Shown: positions 13,840-39,000 of the stretch, one piece after another
Layout of the letters: every line of letters begins with the position of its first letter
Numbering within the stretch: position 1 is the first letter of the stretch
Assembly: GCA_046292385.1 (NCBI GenBank)
Contig: JBKBRF010000013.1
Span: 1-64,000 of the forward strand
Reading direction: 5' to 3'
DNA from: Armatimonadota bacterium
GTDB taxonomy: Bacteria; Armatimonadota; SYMT01
Length of the DNA stretch: 64,000 nucleotides
Position numbers and translations under genes: made by a program
Notes under the pieces: generated by a model
The model's database searches: none
What the model saw: the letters and a program-made list of their open reading frames with translations, nothing else
Told to the model about the DNA's origin: nothing

Positions 13840-16800
13840 ATGATTCCTGCCCGTCTACTCTGGCCCCTGGCCGCCCTGCTCGGTGTCGCCCCCGCTTTCG
13901 CGGCCCTCGCGCCCGCCCCGCCGCCGCCGGCGCGTGGGACGGCTCCCACCGCGGAGACGGAGAAGCTCTTCGAAGAGAAGGTACGCCCTCTCCTCTTCGA
14001 GAAGTGCTTCTCCTGCCACGGAGACACGAAGCAGTTCGGCGACCTGCGCCTCGATTCCCGCGCGGCGCTGCTGAAAGGCGGCACCACCGGTCCGGCAGTG
14101 GTTCCCGGAGACCCGGAGAAGAGCCTGCTGATCCAGGCGGTGCATCAGAGCGGCGCGCTCAAGATGCCGCCGGCCGGTAAGCTGACCCCGGCGCAGGTTG
14201 CCGACCTGGAGCGGTGGGTCCGGCTCGGCGCCTACTGGCCGGAGCCCCGCGGTGGGAAGCCGAAAGCAGCCGAAGCCCCGCACTGGGCGTTCCTGCCGGT
14301 GCGCCCGCAGCGGCCGCCCGCGGTGAAGGACTCCGCCTGGGCCCGGAACCCGATCGACGCCTTCCTCCGCGCCCGGCTCGAGGCCGCCGGCCTGCCTCCC
14401 GCGGCTCCGGCCGATCGCCGCACGCTGATCCGGCGCGTCACCTTCGACCTGATCGGGCTGCCGCCCACGCCCGCGGAGGTGCAGGCGTTCGTCTCGGACC
14501 GGTCGCCGGACGCCTTCGAGAAGGTGGTCGACCGCCTCCTCGCCTCCCCGCACTTCGGGGAGCGCTGGGGCCGGCACTGGCTCGACCTGGTCCGCTACTG
14601 CGACTCGTTCGACGCGCGCCTGCTGGGGGAGAACAACGGCGGCAACGTGATGGACGTCCGGGACGCCTGGCGCTACCGCGATTGGGTGGTCTCCGCCCTG
14701 AACCGCGACCTCCCCTACGACCGGTTCCTGACGCACCAGGTGGCGGGCGACCTCCTCACCGCCCGCGGTGAGGCCGGAGTGGACGGCATCATCGCCACCG
14801 GCATGCTCGCGATCGGCAACTGGGGCGGCGGGGACGCGGACAAGGAGAAGCTGCTCACCGACATCGCGGACGACCAGCTCGACGTCGTGAGCCGCACCTT
14901 TATGGGGGTTACCCTCTCCTGCGCCCGCTGCCACGACCACAAGTTCGACCCGTTCACCACGCAGGACTACTACGCGCTCGCGGGGATCTTCTTCAGCACC
15001 CACATTCTGGAGAACGTCGGGCCCAAGACGAACGGCCCTCCGATGCTCCGGATTCCGCTGCTCACGCCCGCGGAGAAGCAGGCGCGCGAGCGGTACGCGG
15101 CGCGCGCGGCGGAGCTGGAGGGCGAGCTGAAGCGCGAGACGGAGGCGGCCTACACCGCCCACGCCCAGAAGATGCTGCCCGAGACGGCGCGCTACCTCAC
15201 CGCCGCCTGGGAGGCCACCCGGGGCGGCGGCACAGCAGGCCTGGAGCGGCTGGCCGCCGAGCGCGGCCTGCAGCCGGCGGCCCTCTCCCGCTGGATCGAC
15301 TACCTCGGCCTGAGCGACTACCCGCTGATGACGGTGCCGGTCAGCGCCCATCTCGGCGTCGAGCAGATCTTCGCGTGGAAGGGAGCGGCCGACACGCCCT
15401 CGCTGACGGTGAACGCCACCGACCGTGAGCAGACCCTGTTCACGTTCAAGCTGCCGCCGCGCTCCGTCTCCGTCCACCCGGGACCGAGCAACGGGGTCGC
15501 CGTGAACTGGACCAGCCCGCTCAGCGGGGAGGTGGAGGTGACACTCGCGGCGGCGGATGCCGACCCGGTCTCGGGGGACGGGGTGGCGTGGGCGCTCGAC
15601 CACCGGGGCACCGGCGGCGTGCGCGAGCTGGCCGCGGGCAACCTCCCGAACGGCGGCGCCGGTGGAACCGCCTCGCCGGTCACCGTCCGCGTGGCTCGCG
15701 GCGAGACGCTGCAGCTCCTGATCCTGCCGAAGAACGGGCACGGCTGGGACACCACCACCGTCCGCTTCACCCTCCGGGAGAAGGACGGCGCCCGCGCGTG
15801 GGACCTGGCAGAGGATGTCATTCCGGATCCGCTGCTCGGAGGGCGCGGCAACCCGCGGCCGGACCGCTACGGCAACGCGGGGGTCTGGAGCTTCCGGGAC
15901 ATGGCAGACCGCAGCCGCGGCGGCGGGATCCGGTCGGACGACCCCGCCCTGGCCGCCTGGAGTGAAGCCCTGCGGACCGCGCCCGCCGGCGACGCCGCGC
16001 GGCCCCGGATCGAAGCCGCAGCCGCGGCGTTCGCGCGCTCGTTCCAGCTCGTCGATGCCCGCAGCCCGTTCTGGCCCGCCGCCGGCGGGGAAAGTGCCCT
16101 GGAGGCACCGGCCCGAGAGCGCCTGGCACGGCTCCGCGCGGCCCTGGAGGAGCACCGCCGCCAGGCCCCGCCTCCCGTGCAGTACGCCAACGGCGCGCAG
16201 GAGGGCGGCGTGCCCGGCAGCCCGCACGCCGGCGTGCACGACGTGCCGGTCCACATCCGCGGCAGCTACTCACGCCTCGGGGAGGTGGTCCCCCGCCGCT
16301 TCCCGGTGGTGCTCGCCGGGGAGCAGCAGCCGCCGCTGCGAGAGGGCAGCGGCCGCCTGGAGCTGGCCCGGTGGCTCGCTTCCCCGGAGAACCCGCTGAC
16401 GGCGCGGGTGATGGTGAACCGCGTCTGGCAGCACCTCTTCGGCGAAGGCCTGGTGCGAACTCCCAGTAACTTCGGCAAGCTCGGCGAGCCGCCGACCCAT
16501 CCCGAATTGCTGGATTATCTCGCCTCGGTCTTTACTTCCCCCGCCAGCGGCGACACTTCGGTGGCAGGCGCCGGGACAGAGAGACGGAGCGACGGAGAGA
16601 CAGAGCGAGTCCGAACCGCCGCTTTGCGTGGGCCAGCCGTCGCATCTGGAAGTAAGGGTTCGAAATTCATCCCTCATCCCTCATCCTTCATCCCTCAAGA
16701 GGGGCTCGGATGGAGCGTGAAGCGGTTAATCCGGCTGATGGTGCTCTCCTCCGCCTACCAGCAGAGCAGCGCGGGCGATCCGCGGACCGAGGCACGGGAT

Positions 16801-17316
16801 CCGGACAACCGGCTCTTCGGGCGGCAGAACCGCCGCCGGCTGGAAGCGGAGCTGCTGCGGGACAGCCTGCTGGCGGTCACCGGCACGCTCGACCGGCGCC
16901 AGGAAGGACCGGCGACGCGCGACTTCAACGATCCGCGGCGCACTCTCTACCAGATGACGGTCCGCTCCGACCGCTCCGGCTACGGGCCGCTCTTCGACGT
17001 CGCGGACCCGACCGCGCACGTGGACAGGCGAACCGTCTCCACGGTCGCCCCGCAGGCGCTGTTCATGCTGAACCACCCGTTCGTGCTCGCCCGCGCGAAG
17101 ACCCTGGCGGAGCGGGTCCGGCGGGAGGCGCCCGAGAGCCTCTCCCGCATCCGGCTGGCCTACCTGCTGCTCTACGGACGGCCCCCGCGCAGCGCGGAGC
17201 TGGCGCTGGGCCAGCAGTTCCTCCGCGAGGCGGAGGCGGCGGGGCAGGGCGAGCGGGCGTGGGAGGAGTACGCCCTCGTGCTGCTCTGTGCGAACGAGTT
17301 TACGTACGTGGATTAG
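13840..17316 (+). CDS. Planctomycete cytochrome c / DUF1549 / DUF1553 (PSD1) protein with in-frame repeat insert
   Basis: Signal peptide, CFSCH and CARCHDHKFDP heme motifs, GERWGRHWLD, ARVMVNRVWQHLFG and PQALFMLN. Confidence 0.92.
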   Translation: MIPARLLWPLAALLGVAPAFAALAPAPPPPARGTAPTAETEKLFEEKVRPLLFEKCFSCHGDTKQFGDLRLDSRAALLKGGTTGPAVVPGDPEKSLLIQAVHQSGALKMPPAGKLTPAQVADLERWVRLGAYWPEPRGGKPKAAEAPHWAFLPVRPQRPPAVKDSAWARNPIDAFLRARLEAAGLPPAAPADRRTLIRRVTFDLIGLPPTPAEVQAFVSDRSPDAFEKVVDRLLASPHFGERWGRHWLDLVRYCDSFDARLLGENNGGNVMDVRDAWRYRDWVVSALNRDLPYDRFLTHQVAGDLLTARGEAGVDGIIATGMLAIGNWGGGDADKEKLLTDIADDQLDVVSRTFMGVTLSCARCHDHKFDPFTTQDYYALAGIFFSTHILENVGPKTNGPPMLRIPLLTPAEKQARERYAARAAELEGELKRETEAAYTAHAQKMLPETARYLTAAWEATRGGGTAGLERLAAERGLQPAALSRWIDYLGLSDYPLMTVPVSAHLGVEQIFAWKGAADTPSLTVNATDREQTLFTFKLPPRSVSVHPGPSNGVAVNWTSPLSGEVEVTLAAADADPVSGDGVAWALDHRGTGGVRELAAGNLPNGGAGGTASPVTVRVARGETLQLLILPKNGHGWDTTTVRFTLREKDGARAWDLAEDVIPDPLLGGRGNPRPDRYGNAGVWSFRDMADRSRGGGIRSDDPALAAWSEALRTAPAGDAARPRIEAAAAAFARSFQLVDARSPFWPAAGGESALEAPARERLARLRAALEEHRRQAPPPVQYANGAQEGGVPGSPHAGVHDVPVHIRGSYSRLGEVVPRRFPVVLAGEQQPPLREGSGRLELARWLASPENPLTARVMVNRVWQHLFGEGLVRTPSNFGKLGEPPTHPELLDYLASVFTSPASGDTSVAGAGTERRSDGETERVRTAALRGPAVASGSKGSKFIPHPSSFIPQEGLGWSVKRLIRLMVLSSAYQQSSAGDPRTEARDPDNRLFGRQNRRRLEAELLRDSLLAVTGTLDRRQEGPATRDFNDPRRTLYQMTVRSDRSGYGPLFDVADPTAHVDRRTVSTVAPQALFMLNHPFVLARAKTLAERVRREAPESLSRIRLAYLLLYGRPPRSAELALGQQFLREAEAAGQGERAWEEYALVLLCANEFTYVD
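16534..16707 (+). mobile_element. In-frame 58-codon repeat-containing insert in the DUF1553 domain
   Basis: Separates HPELLDYLASVF from GWSVKRL. Contains GACAGAGA-type octamers and TCATCC(C/T) heptamers. The core is 91/97 identical to 36715-36811. Confidence 0.6.
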
Positions 17317-17325
17317 AGGCTCCCG

Positions 17326-18741
<1,416 letters not shown>

Positions 18742-18745
18742 GGAT

Positions 18746-19059
18746 TCCGAACCTGATTTCACCACAGAGCGCACAGAGGACACAGAGGCGGCACGGAGAG
18801 GGGAACAGAGGGTTGGGGCCGGATCCGCTTCCCGAGTCATTCAGCGGCCCCGGTCCGAGCCGGAATTCACCGCAGAGGACGCGGAGAGCGCAGAGGGAAC
18901 GCAGAGGAAGAGCACCGCAGGGATGGCCTGGCTCGCCTGTCGAACCGTTCAGCGGCCCCGCAGTTTCTCCTCCTGGTTCCCCTCTCTGCGTCCTCTGCGC
19001 TCTCTGCGGTGAATTCCCGTTCCGGTTCCTCTCGGTGTGCTCGGTGCGCTCTGTGGTGA
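18746..19059. repeat. Nested inverted-repeat element built from C(A/G)CAGAG nonamer-type repeats (MITE-like)
   Basis: Perfect 16-bp IRs at 18759-18774/19044-19059 and 18862-18877/19002-19017. TTCAGCGGCCCC occurs twice inside. Confidence 0.85.
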
Positions 19060-19069
19060 GTGAACGCGT

Positions 19070-19816
19070 CTACCGCCCGCGCTTCTGCTGGAAGAGCCAG
19101 GTAGCGAATTCCGGATCGTTGTAGGCCGGGTCCCAGCTGTTGTGACCGACGCCCGGGTACTCCGTGTACTTCACGCGGGTGCCGCCGGCCGCCTTGATCG
19201 CCTCCACCATCTCGCGGGAGTGTTGGACCGGAACGGCCTCGTCCTTGTCGCCGTGGAAGACCCAGATCGGGAGCTTGGTGAGCTTCGGCCCCATCTCGGC
19301 GGGGTTGCCGCGGCCGCAGATCGGCGCGACCGCCGCCCACCGCTCCGGGTGCTGCGAAGCGAGCGCCCAGCTTCCGAAGCCGCCCATGGAGAGGCCGGTC
19401 AGATACTGCCGGTCCCGGTCGATGCGGTACTCCTTCAGCGTCTGGTCGAGCGCTCCGAGCGCGACCGGCTTCATGCTCTCCCGGTCCCACCACTCGTTCG
19501 GCAGGCACTGCGGCATCACCACGATGCCCGGGAAGCGGTCCGCGTGCATCCGGATGGCGCCGCCGATGCCGACCTGGCTCTGCGCCAGGCCGTCGGTGCC
19601 GCGCTCGCCCGCGCCGTGGAGGAAGAGCACCACCGGCCACGCTTTGTCCGGGGTGTAGTTGCGCGGCACGTAGACCACGTAAGGATGCTCTCTGCCGTTG
19701 ATCTGGATCGTCTTGTTCAGGAAGCCGGTAGGCGTCATACGCGTCTGTGCGGTCAGTGGCTGCGCCGCCAGGAGGGCCCCTCCGATCAGCAGCAGCGTGA
19801 AGTGTCGTCTGTCCAT
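19070..19816 (-). CDS. Secreted alpha/beta hydrolase (phospholipase/carboxylesterase or predicted peptidase)
   Basis: LFLHGAGERG, GLSMGG nucleophile elbow, WVFHGDKD and GHNSW. Confidence 0.9.
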   Translation of the reverse strand: MDRRHFTLLLIGGALLAAQPLTAQTRMTPTGFLNKTIQINGREHPYVVYVPRNYTPDKAWPVVLFLHGAGERGTDGLAQSQVGIGGAIRMHADRFPGIVVMPQCLPNEWWDRESMKPVALGALDQTLKEYRIDRDRQYLTGLSMGGFGSWALASQHPERWAAVAPICGRGNPAEMGPKLTKLPIWVFHGDKDEAVPVQHSREMVEAIKAAGGTRVKYTEYPGVGHNSWDPAYNDPEFATWLFQQKRGR

Positions 19817-19898
19817 CGTCGGTCCGCTGGCATCAATCGGAGGAGTCTGAACCGGAGAAGAGCTTCGCCGGGGGGCGGGGTCGCACCTCTTCGCGGAG

Positions 19899-22616: not shown

Positions 22617-22625
22617 AGCGCTCCC

Positions 22626-22733: not shown

Positions 22734-23741
22734 TCAGGATTCCGGCTGGTGTCTCCGCATCTGCCGGGCCACCGCCCAGAGGATCGCGCAGAGAATCAGG
22801 TCGGTCACCACGAACACGCCGGTCAGTGCCAGCGCGAAACGGTACCAGATCTGATCGGTCGGGCCGTAGAGCATACCGCCGACCGTGAAGATGGACAAGA
22901 ATGCCGGCTCCAGGTTTGGTGTGAGCCAGGTGCCGACCCACTGACGCCAGTGCTGATCCTGCAGATGGTCCATCAGCCCCCGGATCATCATCACGACACT
23001 ACTGGGCAGGAGAACGACAAGCAGCGCTCCGACTATCGCTGCTGCCGCCGCAATCGATGGGGAGCACGGGCGATTGACGGCGCTCGCGGAGCGAATCGCC
23101 ACGACGTAGATCGAGATCGTCACCGCGGTCAGAGCTCCGCCAAGCGGAAGGGGCATGAAGCTGGCTCCGATGATCACCGCAGTCGCCGCGACCGCAGTCC
23201 GCCGCGGCCGCTGGAACAGACTGCCGAGCAGGGCGCTGATTACCGCAAGCGGAAACGCCGCGGTGGGGAGTAGACCCACCAGTCCGAGCGGATACGAGGC
23301 GTCGGCGTCCATCGGAATGTGGGGCATCCCCAGGTATGCACCCCAGCCCGTCAGGCCGGAGTGCCAACCGAAGGAGAGCGCTGCGAAGCCCGCGAGCACC
23401 ACCGCGTAGAGCGGCAGGATCCGGCCGGCGATCCGCGCCAGCAGCCCCTCCCCGCCGCGTCCCCGGGGGATCAGATCCGCTCCCAGCCACGCTCCGCCCC
23501 AGCAGAGCAATCCGTTGAGGCCCCAGAAGCAGGCGGCGTCGAGCCAGGAGAGCGCCGGCAGCCGCGCCCCGGCGTAACCGCAGAACCCCGAGCCGGCTAC
23601 GAGCAGCACCGCGGCCGTGAGCCGGAGATGCCCGAACCGCCCGCCCCAGGTGCGGCGGGCCTCCGCGGCCGTGATCGACAGCACGCTCCTGCGGGACGCG
23701 GCGCGGGGACCTGCGACCGAATTGGACACGTGCTCCCCCAT
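22734..23741 (-). CDS. Multi-pass membrane protein, EARRTWG family (unit 1, gene 2)
   Basis: AAEARRTWGG, CWGGAWLGAD, GRILP and multiple TM segments. Confidence 0.75.
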   Translation of the reverse strand: MGEHVSNSVAGPRAASRRSVLSITAAEARRTWGGRFGHLRLTAAVLLVAGSGFCGYAGARLPALSWLDAACFWGLNGLLCWGGAWLGADLIPRGRGGEGLLARIAGRILPLYAVVLAGFAALSFGWHSGLTGWGAYLGMPHIPMDADASYPLGLVGLLPTAAFPLAVISALLGSLFQRPRRTAVAATAVIIGASFMPLPLGGALTAVTISIYVVAIRSASAVNRPCSPSIAAAAAIVGALLVVLLPSSVVMMIRGLMDHLQDQHWRQWVGTWLTPNLEPAFLSIFTVGGMLYGPTDQIWYRFALALTGVFVVTDLILCAILWAVARQMRRHQPES

Positions 23742-23773
23742 TCCGCTGGGATCCCTCCGGCAGTAAGGTGGGC

Positions 23774-24676
23774 CTATCTCGCGCGGCGGCGCTGGATCGA
23801 CACCAGCCAGAGCGCCTGGATCGCCGAGAGACCCAGGAAGATCAGCGCCGCATTCGCGCAGTAGAGCAGGTATCCGAAGTCACTCTCGGGTGGACTTCCA
23901 AAGCGCTTCTCGATGAAGGCTGCCCCCAGAACTCCGACGCAGAAGTTCGGCACCAGCACCGCCCTGTCCCACCGCCGCAGCAGCATCTCCCCGGAGACGT
24001 AGACGTCGAAGGGAGGGAATTCCCAGATCGAGTGAGCGTGCCAGCTCAAGGCAACGCCCAGCGCCGCGCTGCCGACGAGGACGGTAAACGGAGCGACCAC
24101 CCAGCGCCGCCGCCGCCGCGAGAGGGCGCTCAAGAGGGCGGCTCCGAGTGCATAGGGAAGCCCGCTGAGTGGGATGATGAGCGCCCAGCCGATCCAGGTC
24201 GCGGCGGCGGCGCCGGTAAGCGGAGCCGGCTCGCCCAGGATCGGCTCGTAAAGGGGACCATACCAGAACTCGATCGGGTCTCCGGCAAGCTGGCGCAGGT
24301 GGTATCCGCCGGTCAGTACGGCGGCAGCCAGGAATAGAACCAAGCCAAACGGAAGCACGCGGCCGAGCAGCCGTGCTCCGGGACGGTCCTGCCCCCGGGG
24401 CCCCGCGGAATTGAAGAGATCCGCTCCAAGCCACGCCGGGACCCAGCAGGCCAGCGCGCAGAGGGTCCAGAACGCCTCCCGGAAGCCTGCGTTTCCGGTC
24501 CAGCCGAAGCCGGTTCCCAGAGGCCCGCGCGGTGCTCCCGGCGTAAGCCAGACTACCACCGCTGCCGCGATCACGCTCAGCACCGCCAGCGCGAGCCACG
24601 CTCGACCATACCGCCCGCCCCAGGTGCGGCGGGCCTCGGCGGCGGCGGCAACGAATCCCGGCTTGGCGGCGTCCAT
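23774..24676 (-). CDS. Multi-pass membrane protein, EARRTWG family (unit 1, gene 1)
   Basis: MDAAKPGF, AAEARRTWGG, CWVPAWLGAD and GRVLP. Confidence 0.8.
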   Translation of the reverse strand: MDAAKPGFVAAAAEARRTWGGRYGRAWLALAVLSVIAAAVVVWLTPGAPRGPLGTGFGWTGNAGFREAFWTLCALACWVPAWLGADLFNSAGPRGQDRPGARLLGRVLPFGLVLFLAAAVLTGGYHLRQLAGDPIEFWYGPLYEPILGEPAPLTGAAAATWIGWALIIPLSGLPYALGAALLSALSRRRRRWVVAPFTVLVGSAALGVALSWHAHSIWEFPPFDVYVSGEMLLRRWDRAVLVPNFCVGVLGAAFIEKRFGSPPESDFGYLLYCANAALIFLGLSAIQALWLVSIQRRRAR

Positions 24677-24685
24677 GGTCGGTGG

Positions 24686-24715
24686 GAAGTGAGCTGCCTT
24701 ACCGTTCCACGGGAG
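24686..24715 (-). promoter_or_regulatory. Conserved 30-bp upstream motif CTCCCGTGGAACGGTAAGGCAGCTCACTTC
   Basis: Identical to 28500-28529, and 9 nt from the start codon in both. Confidence 0.7.
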
Positions 24716-24872
24716 AGATGCGACCTCCTGTGGTGCCTGCCACTCTGAAGAAACGCCGCTGGCTGGCGCCCGTCAGCACGGATCCTGATCGGCGCGTGTT
24801 CTCTGAGCTCTCCCATGCAGGCGACGAGCGGGGGGACTGGTGGAGGGGGCTCGGCGGTATACTTTCACTGCT

Positions 24873-25121
24873 ATGCCACCCACCGCATGGAAGCCCGAAT
24901 ACACCAGCCGCGCTGAAGAGATCTGGGAGGAGTACCAGCGACAGCACGATCTGTCCGCGCGGACCGGTCAGGTGGCCGCCATCGATCCCCTTACCGGGCG
25001 GGTGTGGGTGGCCGAATCAGGCATCGACGTCGCGGCGATGGTGGAAGCGGAGGGCGTCGACACCCCGGTTTACCTCGTACGCGTCGGCTCATCCGCGTAT
25101 GTGCGGAAAGGCCGTCGATGA
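24873..25121 (+). CDS. Small protein coupled to a clan AA protease (DUF5678-like)
   Basis: 82 aa with GQVAAID...GRVWVA. TATACT upstream and an ATGA overlap with the next gene. Confidence 0.7.
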   Translation: MPPTAWKPEYTSRAEEIWEEYQRQHDLSARTGQVAAIDPLTGRVWVAESGIDVAAMVEAEGVDTPVYLVRVGSSAYVRKGRR

Positions 25122-25474
25122 TTACCGGGGCCGTCGACGCGGACGGCGCGCCCGTCATCAGCCTCTCCGTAGCCGGACGAACGTGGAAGGCGATCATCGA
25201 TACTGGCTTCAACGGTGATCTGGAGTTGCCCCAAGCGCTGGGGCCGAGTGTCAACGCCCGCTTCTTCGGTCGCGGCCGGGCCAATCTGGCCGGCGGTCAG
25301 GCTATAGAAGAGGAGTACTACCTGGTCGACTTCCCATTCGACGGAAGCACGGTGCGGGCACTGGCCTCCTTCGTCACGGGCTCGGAGATCCTGATCGGAA
25401 CCCGTCTCCTCCAGGACCACCGGCTGGAGATCGACTTTCCCGCGCGGAAGGTGAGCTTGAGTCGAACCCTCTGA
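25118..25474 (+). CDS. Clan AA (retropepsin-like) aspartic protease
   Basis: IIDTGFNGDL catalytic motif and LIGTRLL...LEIDF C-terminal motif. Confidence 0.88.
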   Translation: MITGAVDADGAPVISLSVAGRTWKAIIDTGFNGDLELPQALGPSVNARFFGRGRANLAGGQAIEEEYYLVDFPFDGSTVRALASFVTGSEILIGTRLLQDHRLEIDFPARKVSLSRTL

Positions 25475-25479
25475 GAGCG

Positions 25480-25649
25480 CCCAGCCATCCTCTCGAAAGT
25501 GCCCGCGAAGGCACCTCGGGGGCTCCGCGGGGGAGCAGGTCCGCGCCCAGCCACGCCCCGCCCCTGACGGAGCGACACTCGGCGCCGGCCGTCGCGTGAA
25601 AGCCCTCACGCGAGTCACCAATAGCTGCGGCAGCGCAATGGGCGGTCAT
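25480..25649 (-). pseudogene. Decayed EARRTWG-family gene (unit 2, gene 2)
   Basis: ATGA overlap with the 25646 stop. Retains GGAWLGADLLPRG but lacks the rest and runs into the convergent protease gene. Confidence 0.6.
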
Positions 25650-26593
25650 CGCGAAGTACCCTCCGGGAAACTGTGGCGGCGGAAATTGCGCCGATGCCGG
25701 CAGTACAAGATCAGCCGGATGAGTCCCAGCTCACCCACTGAGAGCATCAGGAAGAACAGGGTGGTGGAGGCGCAGAAGAAGAGGAACCGTACCTCGTCGC
25801 TCCCCGGCAAGACGCTGCCGAGGAACCGCGGGTCGGTGACCTGGACTGCGCCCATGGCCCCAATCGCGTAGCTCGGCACCAGAACCGCCCAGATCCAGTG
25901 GTCGAAAAGGCCCGGCGCGGAGGCGTAGATCCCCAGCGGGAGACCCCCACTCTCCACCGCCCGGTTTGCCAGGCTCAGCGGCAGGCCGAGCAGGGCGCTT
26001 CCGCAGATCACCACGAACGGCGCGATGATCCACCGGCGAGGGTGGCGAGCCAGCGCGCTGGCGATCACTCCGCCCAGCGCGTAGGGAGCGGCACAGCTCA
26101 CGATCGCCAGCGTCCAGACCGGCCAGGTCCAAACCGCCGCCAGCACGCTGGGCTCCGTGCGGTCCTCGAAAGCGTAGGCGAAATCGATGGGGCTCTCCGC
26201 GAGCCAGCTCCGGAGAAACCCACCAGTCAAAATCGCCGCCAGGAGCGATAGAACGGTGCAGAACGGCACCAGGCGGCCGGTCAGCCGCGCGGCCCATTTG
26301 GATGGCGAGTAGGAGGGATCGGCGGAAGCGAGCAGATCCGATCCCAGCCACGCCGGAATCCAGCAGCCCATCGCCCAGACCGCGAAATACGCCGTGTGGA
26401 ACAGCGGCTCCCCACTCCAGGCGTTCGCTCCGAGCCAGGTGAACGGGTCCCAGGGAGCGAGCAGAACGCTGCCGACGGCCAACGCCAGTAGCGCGGAGGC
26501 AATTCCGAGCCACCCTCGCAGACACCGCCCGCCCCAGGTGCGTCGGGCTTCGGCGGCAGCGACGGACAGGCGGCGGGGCTTCCGTAGATCCAT
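25646..26593 (-). CDS. Multi-pass membrane protein, EARRTWG family (unit 2, gene 1)
   Basis: MDLRKP, AAAEARRTWGG, CWIPAWLGSD and GRLVP. Confidence 0.8.
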   Translation of the reverse strand: MDLRKPRRLSVAAAEARRTWGGRCLRGWLGIASALLALAVGSVLLAPWDPFTWLGANAWSGEPLFHTAYFAVWAMGCWIPAWLGSDLLASADPSYSPSKWAARLTGRLVPFCTVLSLLAAILTGGFLRSWLAESPIDFAYAFEDRTEPSVLAAVWTWPVWTLAIVSCAAPYALGGVIASALARHPRRWIIAPFVVICGSALLGLPLSLANRAVESGGLPLGIYASAPGLFDHWIWAVLVPSYAIGAMGAVQVTDPRFLGSVLPGSDEVRFLFFCASTTLFFLMLSVGELGLIRLILYCRHRRNFRRHSFPEGTSR

Positions 26594-26603
26594 GTCATCT
26601 TGC

Positions 26604-26628
26604 AGTGAGATCTCTTACCGTTCCGCGG
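26604..26628 (-). promoter_or_regulatory. Diverged copy of the upstream motif
   Basis: agtgagatctcttaccgttccgcgg, 21/25 identical to the other copies and at the same position (within 1 nt) relative to the ATG. Confidence 0.65.
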
Positions 26629-26739
26629 ATCACAGCGCGGCTCCTATTCCGTTTCCGGCACCCCAACCAGCCACCGGCGATAGCGGTCGCGGGAGCACGC
26701 CTCACGAGACTCGCTCACTGATGGGGAAGCGCAAGCTGA

Positions 26740-27624
26740 TCACGACCCGCCGCGGCGACCGCCTGACCCGTTCGCGGCCAGGCGCACGATCCCGAGTAGC
26801 ACCAGATCCAGCGCCAGTAGGGCCAGCGCCGGAAGCTGATGGTGCCAGCGTGGGATCTCGTGCTGGCTCGTATAGCCGAGGCCCAGCGTGTAGTCGAACA
26901 GGACCAGCACCTCACCGATCAGGTAGTAGCTCGGCCCTGCGAAGTTGAACGCCACCGCCTCGGGCTCCAGCGACACCAGATAGGCCATCCAGGAGCTGAG
27001 GTGCCCTAGCCGCATCGCCATCGCGGACACCAGGCTCACGCTCAAGCCTACGACTGTCGCCGGGGTAATCACCTGGCGGGGAGGGCGTCGGAACCTCGAC
27101 CCGATGACCGCCGCGCAAGCGAAGAACGGAAAGGCGCCGGCGAACAGCTCGGCCACACGGTGCAGCGGATGGTACGCGCTGCCGTACATCGGGATGTCCA
27201 CCACGTGGAGATTGGCGCGCGAGCCTTCGCTCAGCGAGACATACCAGCCGAAGGAGAGCGCGCTGAATCCAAGTAGCACGACGGCGTAAAGCGGCAGCAG
27301 CCGACCCACAGCGCGAGCGAACAGCCCTTTCGCGCCGTACCCCTGCGGAACGAAATCCGCGCCCAGCCAGGCGCCGCCCCAGCAGAGGAGTGCCTGCAAG
27401 GCCCAGAAGGTCACATCGTCCAACCACGTGGGGCCGCCGGGGTGCTCCGCCAGCGGAGTGGCGAAGGCTGCGATCAGAACCATCACCATCGCGTTCGCCA
27501 GTTGGAGAGGCAGGTAGGGGCCACCCCACGTGTTTCGAGCCTCGGCAACAACCGTAGCCAGTAAGCCCTGCGAGGGCGGCTCCCCGGCTCGCGCCGTTTC
27601 ACGATCCGAGCTGGCCGCGTTCAA
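26740..27624 (-). CDS. Multi-pass membrane protein, EARRTWG family (unit 3, gene 2)
   Basis: AEARNTWGG, CWGGAWLGAD and GRLLP. Start overlaps the upstream stop by 4 nt. Confidence 0.75.
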   Translation of the reverse strand: MNAASSDRETARAGEPPSQGLLATVVAEARNTWGGPYLPLQLANAMVMVLIAAFATPLAEHPGGPTWLDDVTFWALQALLCWGGAWLGADFVPQGYGAKGLFARAVGRLLPLYAVVLLGFSALSFGWYVSLSEGSRANLHVVDIPMYGSAYHPLHRVAELFAGAFPFFACAAVIGSRFRRPPRQVITPATVVGLSVSLVSAMAMRLGHLSSWMAYLVSLEPEAVAFNFAGPSYYLIGEVLVLFDYTLGLGYTSQHEIPRWHHQLPALALLALDLVLLGIVRLAANGSGGRRGGS

Positions 27625-28490
27625 TCGCGGGACCCCGCGGGAGACTCACCGGGCACTCCATTTCGCCTGGTGAGGCAGAGAAGGCCGTAGAGCGACGCGT
27701 TCGTCAGCATCACCTCTGCAATGATCGGAAAGACCCCTCGCTCCTGGCCGAGCTTCTCCATCACTGGCAAATGCAAGGGAATCAGTGTGCCGATGAGATC
27801 TCCTAAACAGCCCACCAGACTCAGTACCAGGAAGTTGGGCGCGCCGAGAGCGACGAACGCCTGCGTCGGGTCGCCATTCCCAAGCGTACCGATGATGTCT
27901 TTCTCCCACGCAGCTTCGTTGGATGAAGCGAGGAGAAGGACCATCACCGTCACCGAGGTCATCATCACCGCCGGAGTGATCAGGAGACGCCTCGGCCGAC
28001 GAAAGCTGGAGCCGACGAGCGCCGCGAGGATGAAGAACGGGAACGCGCTCGCCAGGAAAATGCCGAATGACGACAGCGGCCATGAGAAGCCAAGAGCGAT
28101 CGGCACCTCCAGGATCGGAATCGGGCCGATCCAGCGAATCTCACGCTGACTGTGCCAGGCCGCGGAAACAGCAAAGAGTACCGCCCGCACGGCTGCGATC
28201 AGGGGACAGAGCCGCCCGAGTGCTCGTGCCCCGAGCCGGCCTCCTTCCGTTCCGCGCGGGATGAAGTCCGCACCGAGCCAGGCAGCCGCCCAGCAGAGCA
28301 GCGCGTTGGCAGCCCACACAGGCGCCGTCTCGATCCGGGCCAGCCCTCCGCCCCAATAGGTGTGCGGACCGACGATCACCACCAGGCAGATCGAGAGCAC
28401 GACGCTGATCAGCCGCGCAGCGGGGCAGCCCCACGTGCGGCGGGCCTCGGCGGCGGCGACGGCAAAGAATCCCGGCTTGGGGGCGTCCAT
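27621..28490 (-). CDS. Multi-pass membrane protein, EARRTWG family (unit 3, gene 1)
   Basis: MDAPKPGF, AAAEARRTWG, CWAAAWLGAD and GRLCP. Confidence 0.8.
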   Translation of the reverse strand: MDAPKPGFFAVAAAEARRTWGCPAARLISVVLSICLVVIVGPHTYWGGGLARIETAPVWAANALLCWAAAWLGADFIPRGTEGGRLGARALGRLCPLIAAVRAVLFAVSAAWHSQREIRWIGPIPILEVPIALGFSWPLSSFGIFLASAFPFFILAALVGSSFRRPRRLLITPAVMMTSVTVMVLLLASSNEAAWEKDIIGTLGNGDPTQAFVALGAPNFLVLSLVGCLGDLIGTLIPLHLPVMEKLGQERGVFPIIAEVMLTNASLYGLLCLTRRNGVPGESPAGSRD

Positions 28491-28499
28491 GACGAGTCA

Positions 28500-28529
28500 G
28501 AAGTGAGCTGCCTTACCGTTCCACGGGAG
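28500..28529 (-). promoter_or_regulatory. Conserved 30-bp upstream motif
   Basis: Identical to 24686-24715. Confidence 0.7.
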
Positions 28530-29793: not shown

Positions 29794-31062
<1,269 letters not shown>

Positions 31063-31328
31063 GGCTCCAGGCTGCAGGTGGGGAGGTTCCAGGTCGGCAG
31101 CCGGTGCCCAGGCAGCGGAGCTGGAGACCCGGCAGCCTTCCCACCGGAAGCGTCGGGAACGTGGCAAACTGGACAGCGGGCGACCCGTAGGGTATACGGG
31201 CTAGCAACAACTCCGGAACGGCCCCTCTTCCGCGGGGAGAGGGGTCACGAAAAACAGAGCGCCATCCGGGGCGCGGGCCGGCGCCCGGCGGCAGGACGGC
31301 CGCAGCGCGTTGGGTGGGAGAACACTTG

Positions 31329-33734
31329 GTGTCGGCACTGAACGAAGAACTGCTCATCCCCGAAGAGACCGCTATTCCGGAGATCCTGCCGCTGCTGCCG
31401 ATCCGGGAGCCGGTCTACTTCCCCCACAACATCTTCCCGCTGTTCGTAGGGCGGGATAAGTCGATCCGCGCGCTGGAAGAGGCGCGGTCCCAGGACCGGT
31501 ACATCTTCCTGGTCGCCCAGAAGCAGATGGCGATCGACGACCCGGCGCCGGAAGATATCTACCAGGTGGGCACCATCGCCGAGGTGATGCAGGTGCTCAA
31601 CCTGCCGGACGGCACCGTCCGCGTGATGCTGGAAGGGCAGGCCCGGGCCCGCATCGGCGACTACCTCCAGACCGACCCGTTCTTCCGCGTCCGGGTAGAG
31701 CTGCTGCCGGAGCCGGAGGAGCGCACCGCGGAGGTCGAGGCGTTGATGCGCAGCGTCATCGCGCAGTTCCAGCAGGTGGTGGAGCTCGGTAAGGAGATCC
31801 CGCCGGAGGCGCTGGTGCAGGTGGTGAACATCGACGAGCCGGGCCGGCTCGCGGACACCATCATCCCCTACCTCAACCTGCGCCCCAAGGTCGAGCGCCT
31901 GCAGGAGCTGCTGGAGACCGTCTCCGTCCGCGACCGGCTGGAGAAGCTCAACTTCGTCCTCAAGAAAGAGACCGAGGTCCTGGAGATCCAGCGGAACATC
32001 CGGAACAAGGTCGAGAAGGAGATGGGCGATACCCAGCGGGAGTTCATCCTGCGGGAGCAGCTCAAGGCGATCCAGCAGGAGCTGGGCGAGCGGGACGAGC
32101 GCGGCTCCGAGATCGAAGAGTACCGGGAGAAGATCCAGAACGCCAAGATGCCAGAAGAGGTGGAAGAGCGCGCCCTGAAGGAGCTCGACCGCCTGGAGAA
32201 GATGCCGTTCCAGGCGCCGGAAGGCGTGGTGGTGCGGACCTATCTCGACTGGCTCACCGCCCTGCCGTGGTCCGTCTGCTCCGAAGAGACGCTGGAGATG
32301 GACAAGGCGCAGGAGACGCTGGACGAGGACCACTACGGCCTGGCGAAGGTGAAGGAGCGGATCCTGGAGTTCCTGGCGGTCCGCAAGCTCTCCAAGGAGA
32401 TGCGCGGCCCCATCCTCTGCTTCGTGGGTCCTCCCGGGGTCGGCAAGACCTCCATCGGCAAGAGCATCGCCCGGGCGCTGGGACGCAAGTTCATCCGCGT
32501 CTCTCTCGGCGGCGTGCGGGACGAGGCGGAGATCCGCGGCCACCGGCGCACCTACATCGGCGCGCTCCCCGGCCGCATCATCCAGGGGATCAAGACGACC
32601 GCCACCAAGAATCCGGTCTTCATGCTGGACGAGATCGACAAGCTCGGGATGGACTTCCGCGGCGACCCGTCGTCCGCGCTCCTGGAAGCGCTCGATCCGG
32701 AGCAGAACAACGCCTTCAGCGATCACTACCTGGAGGTGCCGTTCGACCTCTCCGACGTGATGTTCATCACCACGGCGAACCTGCTCGACCCGATCCCGGC
32801 GGCGCTGAAGGACCGCATGGAGGTGATCCAGTTCCCCGGCTACACGGAGGAAGAGAAGCTCGCCATCGCGCGGGACTTCCTGCTCCCCAAGCAGCGCAAG
32901 GAGAACGGCATCACCGAAGAGCACCTGCAGGCGACCGAGGCCGCCCTAATGCAGGTGATCCGCGAGTACACGCGCGAGGCGGGCGTCCGGAACCTGGAGC
33001 GGGAGATCGGCACCCTTTGCCGCAAGATCGCCAAGAACGTCGCCAGCGGGCAGGACGAGCTGGTGAAGCTGGACGAGGGCGACCTGAAGCCGTACCTCGG
33101 CCCGCGCCGCTTCCACTACGGACGCGCGGAGGAGAAGGACGAGATCGGCGCGGCGACCGGCCTGGTCTACACTGAGTTCGGAGGCGACGTGGTGGCGGTC
33201 GAGGCGAGCGTCCTCGCCTTCCACGAGCTGAAGCTCACCCTCACCGGGCAGCTGGGCGAGGTGATGAAGGAGAGCGGCATGGCGGCGATGAGCTACGTCC
33301 GCTCCCGCGCGCGCCTGCTCGGCTTCGACGAATCGCTCTTCGAACGGAGCGAAGTCCACATCCACGTGCCCGCCGGCGCGGTGCCGAAAGACGGCCCGAG
33401 CGCCGGCATCACCCTCGCCACCGCCCTCACGAGCGCCGTGACCAAGCGCCCCGTGAAGAAGGATGTCGCCATGACCGGCGAGATCACCCTCCGGGGCAAG
33501 GTGCTGCCGATCGGCGGGGTGAAGGAGAAGGTGCTGGCCGCCCACCGCGCCGGCATCCGCACCGTGATCCTTCCCGCGGAGAACGAGCGCGACCTGGAGG
33601 AGCTTCCGGAGAAGGTGCGCGCGGAGCTGAAGTTCCACCTGGTCGACCACATGGACCAGGTAATCCCGCTCGCCCTCCAGGACGCCCCCCGGCCCAGCCC
33701 CGCCTACGTAGGAGCGAAACCGGCTACCGCTTGA
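31329..33734 (+). CDS. lon: Lon protease
   Basis: Lon N domain, GPPGVGKT, DEIDK, PKDGPSAG and catalytic Lys in GGVKEK. Confidence 0.96.
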   Translation: MSALNEELLIPEETAIPEILPLLPIREPVYFPHNIFPLFVGRDKSIRALEEARSQDRYIFLVAQKQMAIDDPAPEDIYQVGTIAEVMQVLNLPDGTVRVMLEGQARARIGDYLQTDPFFRVRVELLPEPEERTAEVEALMRSVIAQFQQVVELGKEIPPEALVQVVNIDEPGRLADTIIPYLNLRPKVERLQELLETVSVRDRLEKLNFVLKKETEVLEIQRNIRNKVEKEMGDTQREFILREQLKAIQQELGERDERGSEIEEYREKIQNAKMPEEVEERALKELDRLEKMPFQAPEGVVVRTYLDWLTALPWSVCSEETLEMDKAQETLDEDHYGLAKVKERILEFLAVRKLSKEMRGPILCFVGPPGVGKTSIGKSIARALGRKFIRVSLGGVRDEAEIRGHRRTYIGALPGRIIQGIKTTATKNPVFMLDEIDKLGMDFRGDPSSALLEALDPEQNNAFSDHYLEVPFDLSDVMFITTANLLDPIPAALKDRMEVIQFPGYTEEEKLAIARDFLLPKQRKENGITEEHLQATEAALMQVIREYTREAGVRNLEREIGTLCRKIAKNVASGQDELVKLDEGDLKPYLGPRRFHYGRAEEKDEIGAATGLVYTEFGGDVVAVEASVLAFHELKLTLTGQLGEVMKESGMAAMSYVRSRARLLGFDESLFERSEVHIHVPAGAVPKDGPSAGITLATALTSAVTKRPVKKDVAMTGEITLRGKVLPIGGVKEKVLAAHRAGIRTVILPAENERDLEELPEKVRAELKFHLVDHMDQVIPLALQDAPRPSPAYVGAKPATA

Positions 33735-33737
33735 GGA

Positions 33738-34027: not shown

Positions 34028-34034
34028 GATTCCC

Positions 34035-34487: not shown

Positions 34488-34586
34488 GAGCGCTGTCGCC
34501 GGCCCGCGCAAGTAAACTCGGCGCTGGCGGTTCCAGCCTTCGCGCTCTTCCCTCCCTTCGCGCCTTCGCGTCCGTTCGGAAGGGAT

Positions 34587-36053
34587 TCACGCCAGCAGGC
34601 CGGGTACCACCTCTCCGTGGACGTCGGTGAGGCGCCGCTGGATGCCGTTGTGGTAGTAGGTGAGCCGCTTGTGATCGAGGCCCAGCAGGTGCAGGATCGT
34701 GGCATGAAGGTCGTGGACCGTTACCGGGTCGCGCCCCACGGCGTAGCCCACCTCGTCGCTCTCGCCGTGGGTGTAGCCGGGCTTCAGGCCGGCGCCGGCC
34801 ATCCAGCAGGTGAAGGCGTGCTGGTGGTGGTCGCGGCCGCGGGCGCCGACGCCCTGCGTAAACGGCGTGCGGCCGAACTCGGTGGTCCAGACCAGCAGCG
34901 TGTCGTCGAGTAGCCCGCGCTGCTTCAGGTCGCGCAGGAGACCGGCGACCGGCTGATCCATGCTCCCCGCTTCCTGGGTGTGGTTCTGGACCAGGTCTTC
35001 GTGGGCGTCCCAGTTGATGCGCGGCGAGGCGAAGGCGCCGCCGTGGTAGAGCTGCACGAAGCGGACCCCTCGCTCCACCAGCCGCCGGGCGAGCAGGCAG
35101 TTCCGGCCGAAGCCGGCGGTCGGCGCATCGTCCAGCCCGTACAGCGCGCGGGTCTGCGGCGTCTCGTCATCCAGGCGGGTCACTTCCGGGATGCTGAGCT
35201 GCATCCGCGCCGCCAGCTCGTAGCTCCGGATCCGCGCGGCGACGCTCCCCTCCCCCTCCACCTCGCGCTGGAACTCCCGGTCGATCTCCGCCAGCAGCCG
35301 CCGGCTGGCGCGCTCGGTGGCGTCCGGAACCGCGCGCGCAGGGAAGAGGTTCGGGATCGGGTCCCCCTGGGTGCGGAACGCCACGCCCTGGTAGGCCGCG
35401 GGGAGAAACCCGGCGGTCCAGTTGGTGGCGGCGCCGGCCGGGAGCTGCCGCGGGTCCGGAAGGACCACGAAGGCGGGGAGGTCTCGCGACTCGCTGCCGA
35501 GGCCGTAAGTCACCCAGGAGCCCATGCTCGGAAAGCCGTTCAGGGTGAACCCGGAGTTCATCATGAAGGTGGCGGGCGTGTGGTTGTTGCTCTTGGAGAC
35601 CATCGAGTTGACGATCGTCATCTCGTCCACGCAGCCGGCCAGGTGCGGGAGCAGGTCGCTCACCGCGTGCCCGCACTGGCCGCGCTTCGCAAACTTCCAC
35701 GGGCTCTTCATCAGGTTGCCCGGCTGCGCGAAGAAGGTGTCGACCTTCCCCTTCCCGGTCAGCGGCTTTCCGTGGAGGCGCTCCAGCTCCGGCTTGTAGT
35801 CGAGCGTGTCGACGTGGCTCACCCCGCCGCACAGGAAGATCTGGATCACCCGCTTCACCTTCGGGGCGAAGTGCGGGGGGCGCGGGGCAAACGGGTCGGG
35901 GGACGCCGCCGGCGCGGCCAGGGCGGCCGACTGCGACTCCAGCCAGGCCAGGGCGATGCCGCCCAGCCCGCCGCCGGCCCGCCAGAGCAGCTCCCGGCGG
36001 CTCAAGCCGGCCCGCTCCATTCCCGAGCAGGGAGTGGTTCGACGCGGCCTCAT
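34587..36053 (-). CDS. DUF1501 domain protein
   Basis: SRRELL Tat-like motif, GGVSHVDTLDYKP, ARRLVERGVRFVQ, EFGRTP and GRDHH. Confidence 0.93.
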   Translation of the reverse strand: MRPRRTTPCSGMERAGLSRRELLWRAGGGLGGIALAWLESQSAALAAPAASPDPFAPRPPHFAPKVKRVIQIFLCGGVSHVDTLDYKPELERLHGKPLTGKGKVDTFFAQPGNLMKSPWKFAKRGQCGHAVSDLLPHLAGCVDEMTIVNSMVSKSNNHTPATFMMNSGFTLNGFPSMGSWVTYGLGSESRDLPAFVVLPDPRQLPAGAATNWTAGFLPAAYQGVAFRTQGDPIPNLFPARAVPDATERASRRLLAEIDREFQREVEGEGSVAARIRSYELAARMQLSIPEVTRLDDETPQTRALYGLDDAPTAGFGRNCLLARRLVERGVRFVQLYHGGAFASPRINWDAHEDLVQNHTQEAGSMDQPVAGLLRDLKQRGLLDDTLLVWTTEFGRTPFTQGVGARGRDHHQHAFTCWMAGAGLKPGYTHGESDEVGYAVGRDPVTVHDLHATILHLLGLDHKRLTYYHNGIQRRLTDVHGEVVPGLLA

Positions 36054-36068
36054 GGGAGTCTCCCGGGA

Positions 36069-39000
36069 TCAGCGGACATAGACGAGCTCGCTGGCGTTGA
36101 AGAGCACGCGGCAGAGGGCCGGGAGGCCTTGTTCGCGCGCGAACGCGACCGCTCGCCCGGTCTCCGCGGCCGTGGGCGCGCGCGCGAAGAGGAGCTGGTA
36201 GGCGCGCTCCACCTGCCGCGCCGGGTGCGGGCCCGCCTCCCGCTCCAGCCGCGCCGCCAGCGCCTCCGACTGGCGCAGCACGAACGAGTCGTTCAACAGC
36301 GTCAGCGCCTGCAGCGGCGTGGTGGTGGAGCTCCGGCGCGGGGTCTTCACGCTCGGGTCCGGACAGTCGAATGCCTCCAGCAGCGGCACGCCGGTTCCGT
36401 TCAATACCGTCCGGTAGATGCTGCGGCGCTGGTACTCCGGCCCGGTGCGGTCCTCGTAGTTGTAAAAGTGGCTGTTGCTGATCGTGATGCTGAACGGCCG
36501 GAAGCCGGGCCCCTCCGCTTCCAGGTTGAGCTGGCCGCTCACCGCCAGCATCGCGTCCCGCAGCTCTTCCGCCTGGAGGCGCCGCGGCGCCTGCCGCCAG
36601 AGCAGCCGGTTCTCCGCATCGACCGCCGACGCGCGCGGATCGAGCCGCCCCGCCTGCTTGTAGGTGTTCGAGGTGACGATCAACCGATGCAACCGCTTCA
36701 CCCGCCATCCGAAACCCTCTTGAGGGATGAAGGATGAGGGAAGAGGGATGAATCTCGAACCCTTACTCCCGGAGGCGACGGCTGGCCCACGCAAAGCGGC
36801 GGCTCGGACTCCCGCTGTCCCTCTGTCTCTCTGTCTCTCCGTCCCTCTGTGGTCTCTCCGTCTCTCTGTCGCGTCCGCACCAGCGGCAGCTGGCGTCGCG
36901 AAAACAGAGGCGAGGAAGTCGAGGAGCTCCGGGTGCGAGGGCAAATCGCCGGAACGGCCGAGATCGCTGGGGCTGGGGGCGAGCGGGGCGCCGAAGTGGT
37001 GCTGCCAGACACGATTCACCAGCGTCCGGGGCGTGAGAGGATTCTTCGGGTGCGTGAGCCACTCCGCCAGCTTGCGGCGGCGCTCCGCGTCCGGGGCATC
37101 GGGCGAAAGGCCGAAGTCGGCGGAGAGGCCCGGAATGGCGGAGAGCCCGCCGGGCGAGAGCAGCTCTCCCCGGGCCTCGACGTCGCCGCGGTGGAGCAGG
37201 TAGACCTTCGGCGCGGTCTGCGCCACGGCGGCGTAGACGAGCGGCGGAGCCTGCAGGCCCTTTAGCTCCGCCATCAGGCGGTCCCGCTCGGCCTGATGCC
37301 GGGCGCGCTCCGCCCGCTCCGCAGGGTTCAGCGCGCCGAGCAGCTCTGCCCCGGGAATCTCCTCGATTCCCTCGCGGAAGGAGGCGGCGACTTCCTCCGC
37401 CGTAAGGGCCCGGGTGTAGACGCGCGCTTCTTCGATCTCGCCCGAGAGTCGGTCCCTCGCGCCGGTGTGCCGCAGGCCGAAGAGGACGCGGCTGCTGCCT
37501 GCAGGATAGGTGTGGAGCCGCGCCTCCGGCACGTAGCTCTCGCCGTAGGGCTGCCCGTTTCGATAGAGCGAAATGCGACCGTCCGCCGCGTAGGTGATCG
37601 CCAGGTGGACTCGCTCGCCCGCGCGGGTCTCCGGCGCCACGCTCCGATCCTGCGTCCGCCGGAAGTTCTCGCTGCCCGCCATCCACCGTCTGGGCTGGCG
37701 CTCCCCGAAGACGATCGCGTCGAACGCACCGCCCTCCGGGGTCTCCACCGTCAGCGCGCTGCCGCCCTTCTGATCCAGGTCGGCCAGGCGGACCCACGCC
37801 TCCAGCGTCTTCGCGCCGAGCTCGAACGGCAGCGGCGGCGACTCCGCGGCCGCGGTGCCGCTCAGCACCAGGCGCCCGCCGCTCACCGCCGCGCCGCCGG
37901 AGAGGCGAAGCTCCACGCCCGCGGCTTCGTCGCGGGTGCTCGACTCGAAGCTCCAGCGCAGCGCGGGGCGGACCGTCGCCTCCGCCGGGGCCGGTTCGCC
38001 GCGGGCGGCGCGGACCCGCTTTCGGGCCTCACGATCGAACCGGTCGACCGCCGCCTCCGCGTCGGCCACGCGCTCCCGCACGCCCTGCGCTTCCCGCTCC
38101 CGCGCCGCCTGCTCGGAGCCGGAGAGCGCGGGACGGTTCCCCGCGGTCACGCCGGCGAGGGCCGCCTGCAGGCGGAAGTAGTCTGCCTGGGGGATCGGGT
38201 CGAACTTGTGGTCGTGGCAGCGGGCGCAGTTGACCGTCATGCCGAGGAAGGTCTGGCCGACCGCCGCAACGATCTCCTCCAGCTCGTCCTCTCGCGCTCG
38301 GGCTCGCATTACCGGGCTCGCCTGGGAGAGGCCCACCTCATCCCGCGGACCCGCCACCAGGAACCCCGTGGCGACCACGCTCTCCCCGGTGGCGTCCGGC
38401 AGCACGTCGCCCGCCACCTGCTCCCGCACGAAGCGGTCGTACGGTTTGTCCGCATTGAACGCCCGGATCACGTAGTCGCGGTACCGCCAGGCATGGTCGC
38501 GCAGCTTGTCCCGCTCGAAGCCGTCACTCTCCGCGAACCGCGCCAGGTCGAGCCAGTGGCGCGCCCACCGTTCACCGTAGCGGGGCGAGGCGAGGAGCCG
38601 ATCGACGAGCCGATCGTAGGCATCGGGCCGGCGGTCCGAGACGAACGCCTCCACTTCCTCCGGAGTCGGGGGCAGCCCAATCAGGTCGAACGAGAGCCGC
38701 CGGATCAATGTGCGGCGGTCCGCCGTGGGGGCCGGGGAGAGGCCCTGCGCCTCCAGCCGCGCCAGCACGAAGGCGTCGATCGGGCTGCGGACCCATGCCG
38801 CGCGGCGGACCCGCGGCATGGCCGGACGCCGGAGGGGCCGCAGCGACCACCACGAGCTCTCCTCACTCCCCGGCCACTGCGCCCCGGCCGCGATCCATCG
38901 CCGCAGCACCTCCTGCTCCGCGGCGGGCAGCGGGCTGCCGGGCGGCATCCGCAGTCCCTCGGTGGCGGCGACCAGGCGATAGAGCGGGCTCTCCGCCGGC

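Follow-up and report, generated by a model that had tools for sequence, protein, structure and literature searches.

The window analysed here is a stretch of 64,000 nucleotides (nt) from contig C13 of the genome of an Armatimonadota bacterium (G000; assembly of 7.0 Mb, 69% GC, 98%-complete), and it contains two genes with PSCyt1, DUF1549 and DUF1553 domains, A and B, which carry a repeat-built insert at the same point of one protein loop. They are two of 19 copies: in 19 of the 52 measurable DUF1553 paralogs of this genome this loop holds an insert of some 50-65 codons that is built of repeats and keeps the frame. The inserts share their architecture with intergenic mini-elements, occupy a single slot, preserve the reading frame, are distributed incongruently with the host tree, are mosaics and differ in content from genome to genome. 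We favour, with a probability of about 0.62, the reading that a disordered loop tolerant of extension was seeded by heptamer/octamer mini-elements of intergenic origin, which then spread through the family by short-patch gene conversion, the frame being kept by selection. The other genomes of the same taxonomic family are labelled G001 to G006 and contigs are given as C-numbers.

Insert A (16534-16707, forward strand, 58 codons) and insert B (36711-36899, reverse strand, 63 codons) are 174 and 189 nt long and both lie between HPELLDxLASVF and GWxVKRL, where they take the place of the usual three residues (FxxxGW). A core of 97 nt, at 36715-36811 in B, is identical at 91 of 97 positions. An earlier sequence-only reading had reported such frame-preserving inserts at the same codon of both genes, and its coordinates and core identity were reproduced. 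In gene A the conserved left flank HPELLDYLASVF (16498-16533, forward strand), which corresponds to helix 888-899 and is T-rich at third positions, precedes the insert, and the conserved right flank GWSVKRL (16708-16728, forward strand) follows it. Between them lie, all on the forward strand, a purine-rich octamer array of the unit GACRGAGN as left arm (16575-16606), a non-repeat spacer (16607-16666) and a pyrimidine-rich heptamer array of the unit TCATCCY as right arm (16667-16694). The spacer matches its counterparts in gene B and in a paralog on C55 at 92% identity, and a search at E 0.01 gave no match to it outside DUF1553 loops. In gene B the octamer array is found at 36820-36870 and the heptamer array at about 36721-36753. 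The insert has no open reading frame (ORF) of its own and splicing motifs were not seen. In the AlphaFold2 model of gene A (mean predicted local distance difference test score, pLDDT, 89) the insert is a predicted disordered stretch between two confident helices, with pLDDT <50 at residues 907-950, which is the form that the previously proposed new peptide loop would take.

G000 yielded 54 DUF1553 matches, of which 52 could be anchored for loop measurement. Between the anchors the loop measures 60-78 residues in 19 of them and 13-19 residues in the other 33. All long loops begin with a purine-rich octamer array; twelve end in an inverted octamer array and seven, including both window copies, end in a heptamer array and are called hybrids here. 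The twelve octamer-octamer inserts fold as hairpins, better than shuffled sequences (z -1.3 to -6.5). The seven hybrids do not, and a hairpin was looked for in both window copies and not found, their folding being no better than that of shuffles (z +1.55 and -1.26). With units of 7 and 8 nt frameshifts might be expected, but no frameshifted loop was found among 42 left/right anchor pairs, all 42 of which are in one frame. The arrays concentrate on this family: of the 781 merged arrays of G000 (nine unit types, pattern-defined) only 39 fall within called genes, 36 of them in DUF1553 genes, a family that makes up 2.8% of the coding DNA. All 40 individually listed arrays of the two relevant unit types sit in the DUF1553 loop, and about 5000 other genes hold only three short doublets. 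These figures were obtained with a simple gene caller (5150 genes, 78% coding).

It is very improbable that the insert is removed from the RNA in the manner of an intron or an intervening sequence (IVS) and stays untranslated. The intergenic cassettes described below do resemble the 23S rRNA intervening sequences which, according to the accessible part of PMC4990558, are excised by RNase III. However, all 19 inserts are in frame and stop-free in the host frame, yet 17 of the 38 alternative frames hold stops, and the hybrids have no stem. In the same part of that paper the excision of an IVS fragments the RNA (PMC4990558), which an mRNA would not survive. Judged from reading frame and stop codons, the insert is probably translated as part of the host protein.

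The two host genes are strongly diverged. Domain search assigns PSCyt1, DUF1549 and DUF1553 to both, and each is followed by a DUF1501 gene. Gene A (13840-17316, forward strand, 1158 aa) has the order PSCyt1/DUF1549/beta-sandwich/DUF1553, its central domain being a beta-sandwich in the predicted structure, and gene B (36069-39284, reverse strand) the order PSCyt1/DUF1549/LamG/DUF1553. LamG was found in B only, which agrees with the different central domains claimed before. A codon alignment of the two genes shows 93% identity over the final 32 codons of the loop, compared with 66% in DUF1549, 67% in the HPELLD..SVF codons and 55-75% in other segments. At four-fold degenerate sites in DUF1549 only 23 of 44 match, and host synonymous sites are near saturation. 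Equal identity across both genes, as expected from a recent duplication, was therefore not found. The junction comparison, which covers gene A, showed public contigs crossing both junctions with 0 differences, the left one by X1 and X4 and the right one by X1 and X2. X1 is possibly the source run, X2 and X4 come from other studies; because contigs from other studies cross both junctions unchanged, the insert of gene A is not an assembly collapse.

The distribution of the inserts does not follow the host phylogeny. On an IQ-TREE tree built from the domain with the loop removed (50 rows), 12 changes of the insert label are required, no fewer than 7 of them forced; shuffled labels require 15. A second, concatenated tree of 39 rows left out 11 divergent paralogs, which form a divergent outgroup clade, and two unanchored ones. 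On this tree the seven hybrids need seven changes and a single clade of them is rejected by the approximately unbiased (AU) test (p 6e-9), as is one clade of A, B and the C55 paralog (p 3e-78). An insert history congruent with that of the hosts, which would have spoken against sideways spread, is thus contradicted. Recent duplication, a single ancestral insert or an assembly artefact is accordingly an extremely improbable source of the insert content, refuted by the AU tests together with the near-saturated synonymous sites, the codon identity pattern and the junction contigs. What speaks for inheritance is that loops extended modestly (18-30) and residues other than Glu before the Phe are seen throughout the family; a permissive extension may thus be old and have been there before the repeats.

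Collecting and aligning the whole family also showed that insert content is not linked to host identity. Non-repeat spacers reach 88-93% identity between hosts of 42-50% amino-acid identity, and spacer identity does not correlate with host identity (Mantel rho 0.006, p 0.48). In only 2 of the 19 loops do the left and right halves agree in their best partner; in the other 17 the partners differ, and neither half follows the host. In some pairs the copied tracts reach into host codons (C1/C49 89% left and 86% right; C30/C9 94% left), and the A/B tract stops short of them (67%). Shared 14-mers, repeats included, occur in 156 of 171 loop pairs within G000. The ratio of non-synonymous to synonymous changes (pN/pS) in the core is about 0.6, from five non-independent pairs. 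Because the trees are incongruent, the halves mosaic and host codons part of some tracts, we infer that paralogs were copied from one another in patches, the arrays serving as junctions. The sequence-only reading had proposed a non-autonomous element that spreads by homing or gene conversion. The sideways spread is borne out, and gene conversion fits it better than homing; a single discrete homing element is not supported.

The repeats themselves belong to a large intergenic system. Period-7 arrays number 417 and period-8 arrays 206 in G000. Arrays are mostly intergenic and often lie just past stop codons: 394 of 781 follow a gene end by no more than 60 nt and have their purine-rich strand in sense direction, and 162 of 242 neighbouring pairs are convergent. 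Hundreds of intergenic mini-elements consist of a purine-rich tandem array, a spacer and a pyrimidine-rich array, and many array inner ends carry a common motif (TCCGAACC / GGTTCGGA) across unit types. The right arm occurs in 41 genome copies, 34 of them intergenic and seven in DUF1553 loops. One of the intergenic copies, composed of inner motif and heptamer array, lies in the window at 40969-41014 (forward strand), and the insert end reported earlier as free in intergenic DNA from 40969 is this copy. Intergenic look-alikes of the hairpin-type insert are found at C24:14154 and C5:116240. One intergenic inner module is present in the window at 5281-5394 and 40897-41014 with different heptamer arrays, for which reason the arms look exchangeable.

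These free copies bear on the possibility of independent insertions as known from Rickettsia, that is, random landing of intergenic elements which survive only in the tolerant loop, paralogs not being copied from one another. The inserts are like the intergenic elements in arms and architecture, there are 34 free right arms, and one outside spacer match is an intergenic look-alike of an insert, 78% identical. Nevertheless we consider this explanation improbable and largely refuted already. The best spacer matches (88-93%) are to other DUF1553 loops, and the seven weaker outside matches are short or at most 78% identical over their length. The co-copying of host codons in some pairs and the near-absence of arrays from the other genes argue against it as well.

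Arrays also enclose small genes. Inverted arrays bracket all eight four-helix-bundle genes (PF05635, TIGR02436) among those listed in G000, and four of these eight stand directly behind DUF1553 genes (C49:40795, C25:42113, C47:9258, C7:141205). In G006 the same holds by coordinates for three of nine (C511, C318, C571). All four listed GxxExxY genes (PF13366; C5:117273, C82:6306, C7:173816, C16:81372) are enclosed by inverted arrays of different units. Four-helix genes number eight in G000, ten in G005, nine in G006, one each in G002 and G003 and none in G001 and G004. Five matches to the Y1 transposase, the sole transposase family searched, were found in G000; a heptamer array lies upstream of one, and by array patterns none of the five genes has octamer arms.

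Such cassettes could in principle supply a machinery for targeted rewriting or homing, in which a four-helix-bundle/Avd-like protein or a GxxExxY nuclease cuts or primes at the loop and a filled allele is copied in. The bracketing arrays, the genes directly behind DUF1553 genes and the four-helix gene counts, which roughly track loop filling across the seven genomes, would fit, as would the extreme site specificity and a local drop of the GC content at third codon positions (GC3). The AT-richer flanking codons noticed before were indeed recovered across the paralogs of G000: GC3 of the 12 codons left of the insert is 0.715 in the 19 filled genes and 0.924 in 22 insert-less genes (p 3.5e-7). 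A reverse transcriptase-free loop-exchange machinery would, if real, leave locally randomised codons such as those seen beside the insert. The idea that these cassettes encode a machinery, so far undescribed, which again and again rewrites defined loops of PSCyt/DUF1549/DUF1553 proteins, in about 50 paralogs and several phyla, is unlikely all the same, and so is targeted homing in general. No reverse transcriptase (PF00078) match was found in the 98%-complete G000, the borders show neither target duplication nor terminal repeat, 33 of 52 alleles are still empty and loop contents are unrelated between genomes. In addition, G005 has filled another linker too, one whose flanks differ, and G002 has long loops despite a single four-helix gene; the seven related genomes are not independent points. 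A diversity-generating retroelement was rejected on the missing PF00078 match and on the one four-helix protein scanned, which reached 33 bits vs the Avd cut-off of 80.

The DUF1553 family is present in all six other genomes of the taxonomic family, and loop filling is patchy there. In G005, 33 of 48 measured loops are long in a sample enriched for long ones, and the full listing contains 38 DUF1553 domains split at the loop point. All eight loops of G002, which were picked as long, are long and have less repetitive content. Long loops were counted in 7 of 25 cases in G006, 1 of 4 in G004, 0 of 4 in G003 and 0 of 25 in G001 (one mis-anchored row dropped). In G001 DUF1553 domains split near the loop occur at C30:40352-41228, there in two open frames, and C89:2448-3269. 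Loop state differs between close relatives in other genera. The loops of G005 and G006 are filled with the genomes' own repeats, and the loop peptides are unrelated between genomes. Within genomes 14-mers are shared by 165 of 528 loop pairs in G005, 3 of 21 in G006 and 0 of 28 in G002; between genomes by 2 of 1530, repeats included. The last figure and the mosaic halves speak against one homing-element lineage at a cognate site. On a cross-genome FastTree tree of 156 rows the long label needs 50 changes vs 50.5 when shuffled, so it carries no tree signal. G005 also has a second slot, the linker between cytochrome and DUF1549 domains, which is filled in frame with G005 repeats (L077, L097, L103, L104, L144, L145), also in genes with a short DUF1553 loop. 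In G000 no repeat filling was found in the 17 such linkers measured (6-24 residues).

Filled loops are also known outside this taxonomic family. A pattern scan of GTDB gave eight matches, all in the DUF1553 loop, from Chthonomonadales and Blastocatellia/Acidobacteriota, where the filling consists of these groups' own repeats. Two query-biased protein searches gave 20 filled loops of 115 anchored among 120 matches listed (seven of them from G000) and 19 of 132 anchored among 150 matches listed; one match is named Planctomycetota. Of 17 proteins in or near a cluster containing Blastocatellia, anchoring succeeded for 7; outside the loop these share 88-96% identity with the reference, yet their loops are of six different kinds. 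A search of the phylum with the insert profile at E 1e-33 matched 4 of 251 genomes, all from G000's family, with at most 15 candidates scored per genome. Because the profile is tuned to G000 and the candidates are so limited, and Chthonomonadales loops were found otherwise, this is no proof of absence.

The recurrence across phyla could indicate that the filled loop is adaptive, as mRNA hairpin, translational pause or binding peptide, and that selection favoured its spread. The folding of the twelve octamer-octamer inserts and a weak synonymous excess in the core (20/51, p 0.048; pairs not independent) point the same way. We nevertheless hold this to be improbable: the seven hybrids, both window copies included, do not fold, loop peptides have nothing in common between genomes, and loops differ even among the closely similar proteins of the Blastocatellia cluster.

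The reading by seeding and gene conversion would proceed as follows. One or a few intergenic mini-elements may have entered the loop behind the HPELLD helix of a DUF1553 gene, where the inserts are observed and which would be a site tolerant of extension. From there ectopic gene conversion in short patches, presumably of the RecA type, would have spread the loop through some 50 old paralogs and reshuffled it among them. RecA-type recombination is an established route of conversion. The first filling of an empty gene would require crossovers in the conserved HPELLD and W..K.L codons; between genes already filled, crossovers could lie in the arrays themselves. Selection at the protein level would remove frameshifted products, provided the insert is translated, so that non-triplet 7- and 8-mers would survive only in frame. 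The insert peptide is probably a nearly neutral disordered loop, to judge from the pN/pS. Each lineage would overwrite the loop with its own repeats, which amounts to concerted evolution of one loop.

Several points weigh against this reading. Conversion is deduced from its products and not directly seen. The hosts are only 41-65% identical in protein, and therefore the perfect flanking homology for a first filling is short. The eight long loops of G002 share no 14-mer, which means that some long loops escape homogenisation. The reading does not account for the drop of GC3 next to the insert: where intergenic arrays adjoin gene ends there is none (0.851 vs 0.844), a general AT-rich halo around arrays thus not being seen at gene 3' ends, and the drop is weaker in G005 (p 0.13 on the left, 0.005 on the right) and missing from G006. 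Chance seeding by itself is a poor explanation for the filling of this one loop in separate phyla, and the simple gene caller may miss other interrupted genes.

If the reading holds, it describes concerted evolution limited to a single loop, in genes that elsewhere have diverged to 41-65% identity, well below the range usually considered for bacterial gene conversion, and a route that could turn non-coding, non-triplet repeats into protein sequence simultaneously in dozens of genes. The reading would explain why the DUF1553 profile is split at positions 59-65 in many genomes, among them the 38 domains in G005. The loops would also offer a countable read-out for the movement of heptamer repeats and four-helix-bundle cassettes, a point left open in the available parts of the papers cited.

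The surroundings of the two genes can be described briefly. The DUF1501 partners, assigned by domain search, lie at 17326-18741 (forward strand, partner of A) and 34587-36053 (reverse strand, partner of B). The host module of PSCyt1/DUF1549/DUF1553 and DUF1501 is described in PMC3542564, and the words insertion and repeat are nowhere in the available portion of that paper. Nested inverted 9-mer arrays occupy 18735-19075, directly behind a DUF1501 gene. The presence of an array shortly downstream of a DUF1553 gene does not go with the presence of an insert (3 of 19 with insert vs 7 of 33 without; genome 325 of 3789). For the central domain of gene A (residues ~500-690) there is a weak resemblance to sugar-binding folds of the PA14/CBM kind, with a best E of 2.7e-3; Foldseek against PDB gave no match at E <= 0.001. 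NCBIfam gave nothing above cut-off for the two host proteins and Rfam 0 matches for the window. Elsewhere in the window a Lon protease gene (31314-33734), a bacterial alpha-2-macroglobulin gene (56911-63060) and two series of tandem paralogous genes with conserved blocks (6247-10309 and 23469-28529) were noticed.

No publication on repeat-filled DUF1553 loops was found in the literature covered, mostly main texts of non-subscription papers. The closest precedent are the Rickettsia palindromic elements (RPEs), repeats of about 150 nt in frame inside protein genes and compatible with the fold (Ogata 2000 and 2002, in the summaries given by PMC10969869 and PMC3184786). As far as the accessible text of these sources goes, the likeness lies in intergenic-type repeats fused in frame in tolerant protein loops. 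RPEs, however, reside in unrelated genes and have a conserved peptide, whereas here one loop of one paralog family is hit by a tandem-array mosaic that varies by genome and is copied between paralogs, the window copies not being palindromic. Nor do the borders resemble those of MITEs, the miniature transposable elements with inverted repeats: direct repeats average 4.2 nt at an insert's own borders vs 4.4 across genes, inverted ones 4.5 vs 4.5. Because the unrelated host genes and the border features fail, the insert is filed neither as RPE nor as MITE.

Heptamer long simple-sequence repeats (LSSRs), or arrays of the short tandemly repeated repetitive (STRR) type, are described from Xanthomonas and Nostoc (PMC4692102) and, as TAACTGA, from Beggiatoaceae (PMC4679880). 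The G000 arrays agree with them in having tandem units of 5-11 nt, here abundant 7- and 8-mers, which often form inverted pairs and for the most part lie between genes, close behind stop codons. In the passages available, in-gene cases are under-represented or mostly peripheral there, and a fixed internal slot homogenised across paralogs is not described. The 23S rRNA intervening sequences with an S23p/four-helix-bundle ORF (PMC4990558), a protein related to Avd (PMC10053308), are, in the parts of these papers at hand, likewise inserts with hairpin arms that occupy one fixed place in a conserved gene and have a patchy distribution, and the same protein family sits in the array-armed cassettes of G000. 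An IVS is excised from rRNA, in contrast to the present insert, which lies in a protein gene, in frame with its host. Among homing features, an own ORF is absent from the insert; HNH, LAGLIDADG and GIY-YIG were not searched for, and the array-flanked GxxExxY genes are putative nucleases. Homing introns and inteins spread site-specifically into cognate alleles, and the antigenic cassettes of vlsE and pilE are copied patchwise as mosaics by gene conversion. Both traits, spread into cognate sites and mosaic copying, recur here, but with no endonuclease in the insert, no splicing motifs seen and no silent cassette array. Unlike in vlsE and pilE, every donor and every recipient is a full-length gene, and these genes are 41-65% identical.

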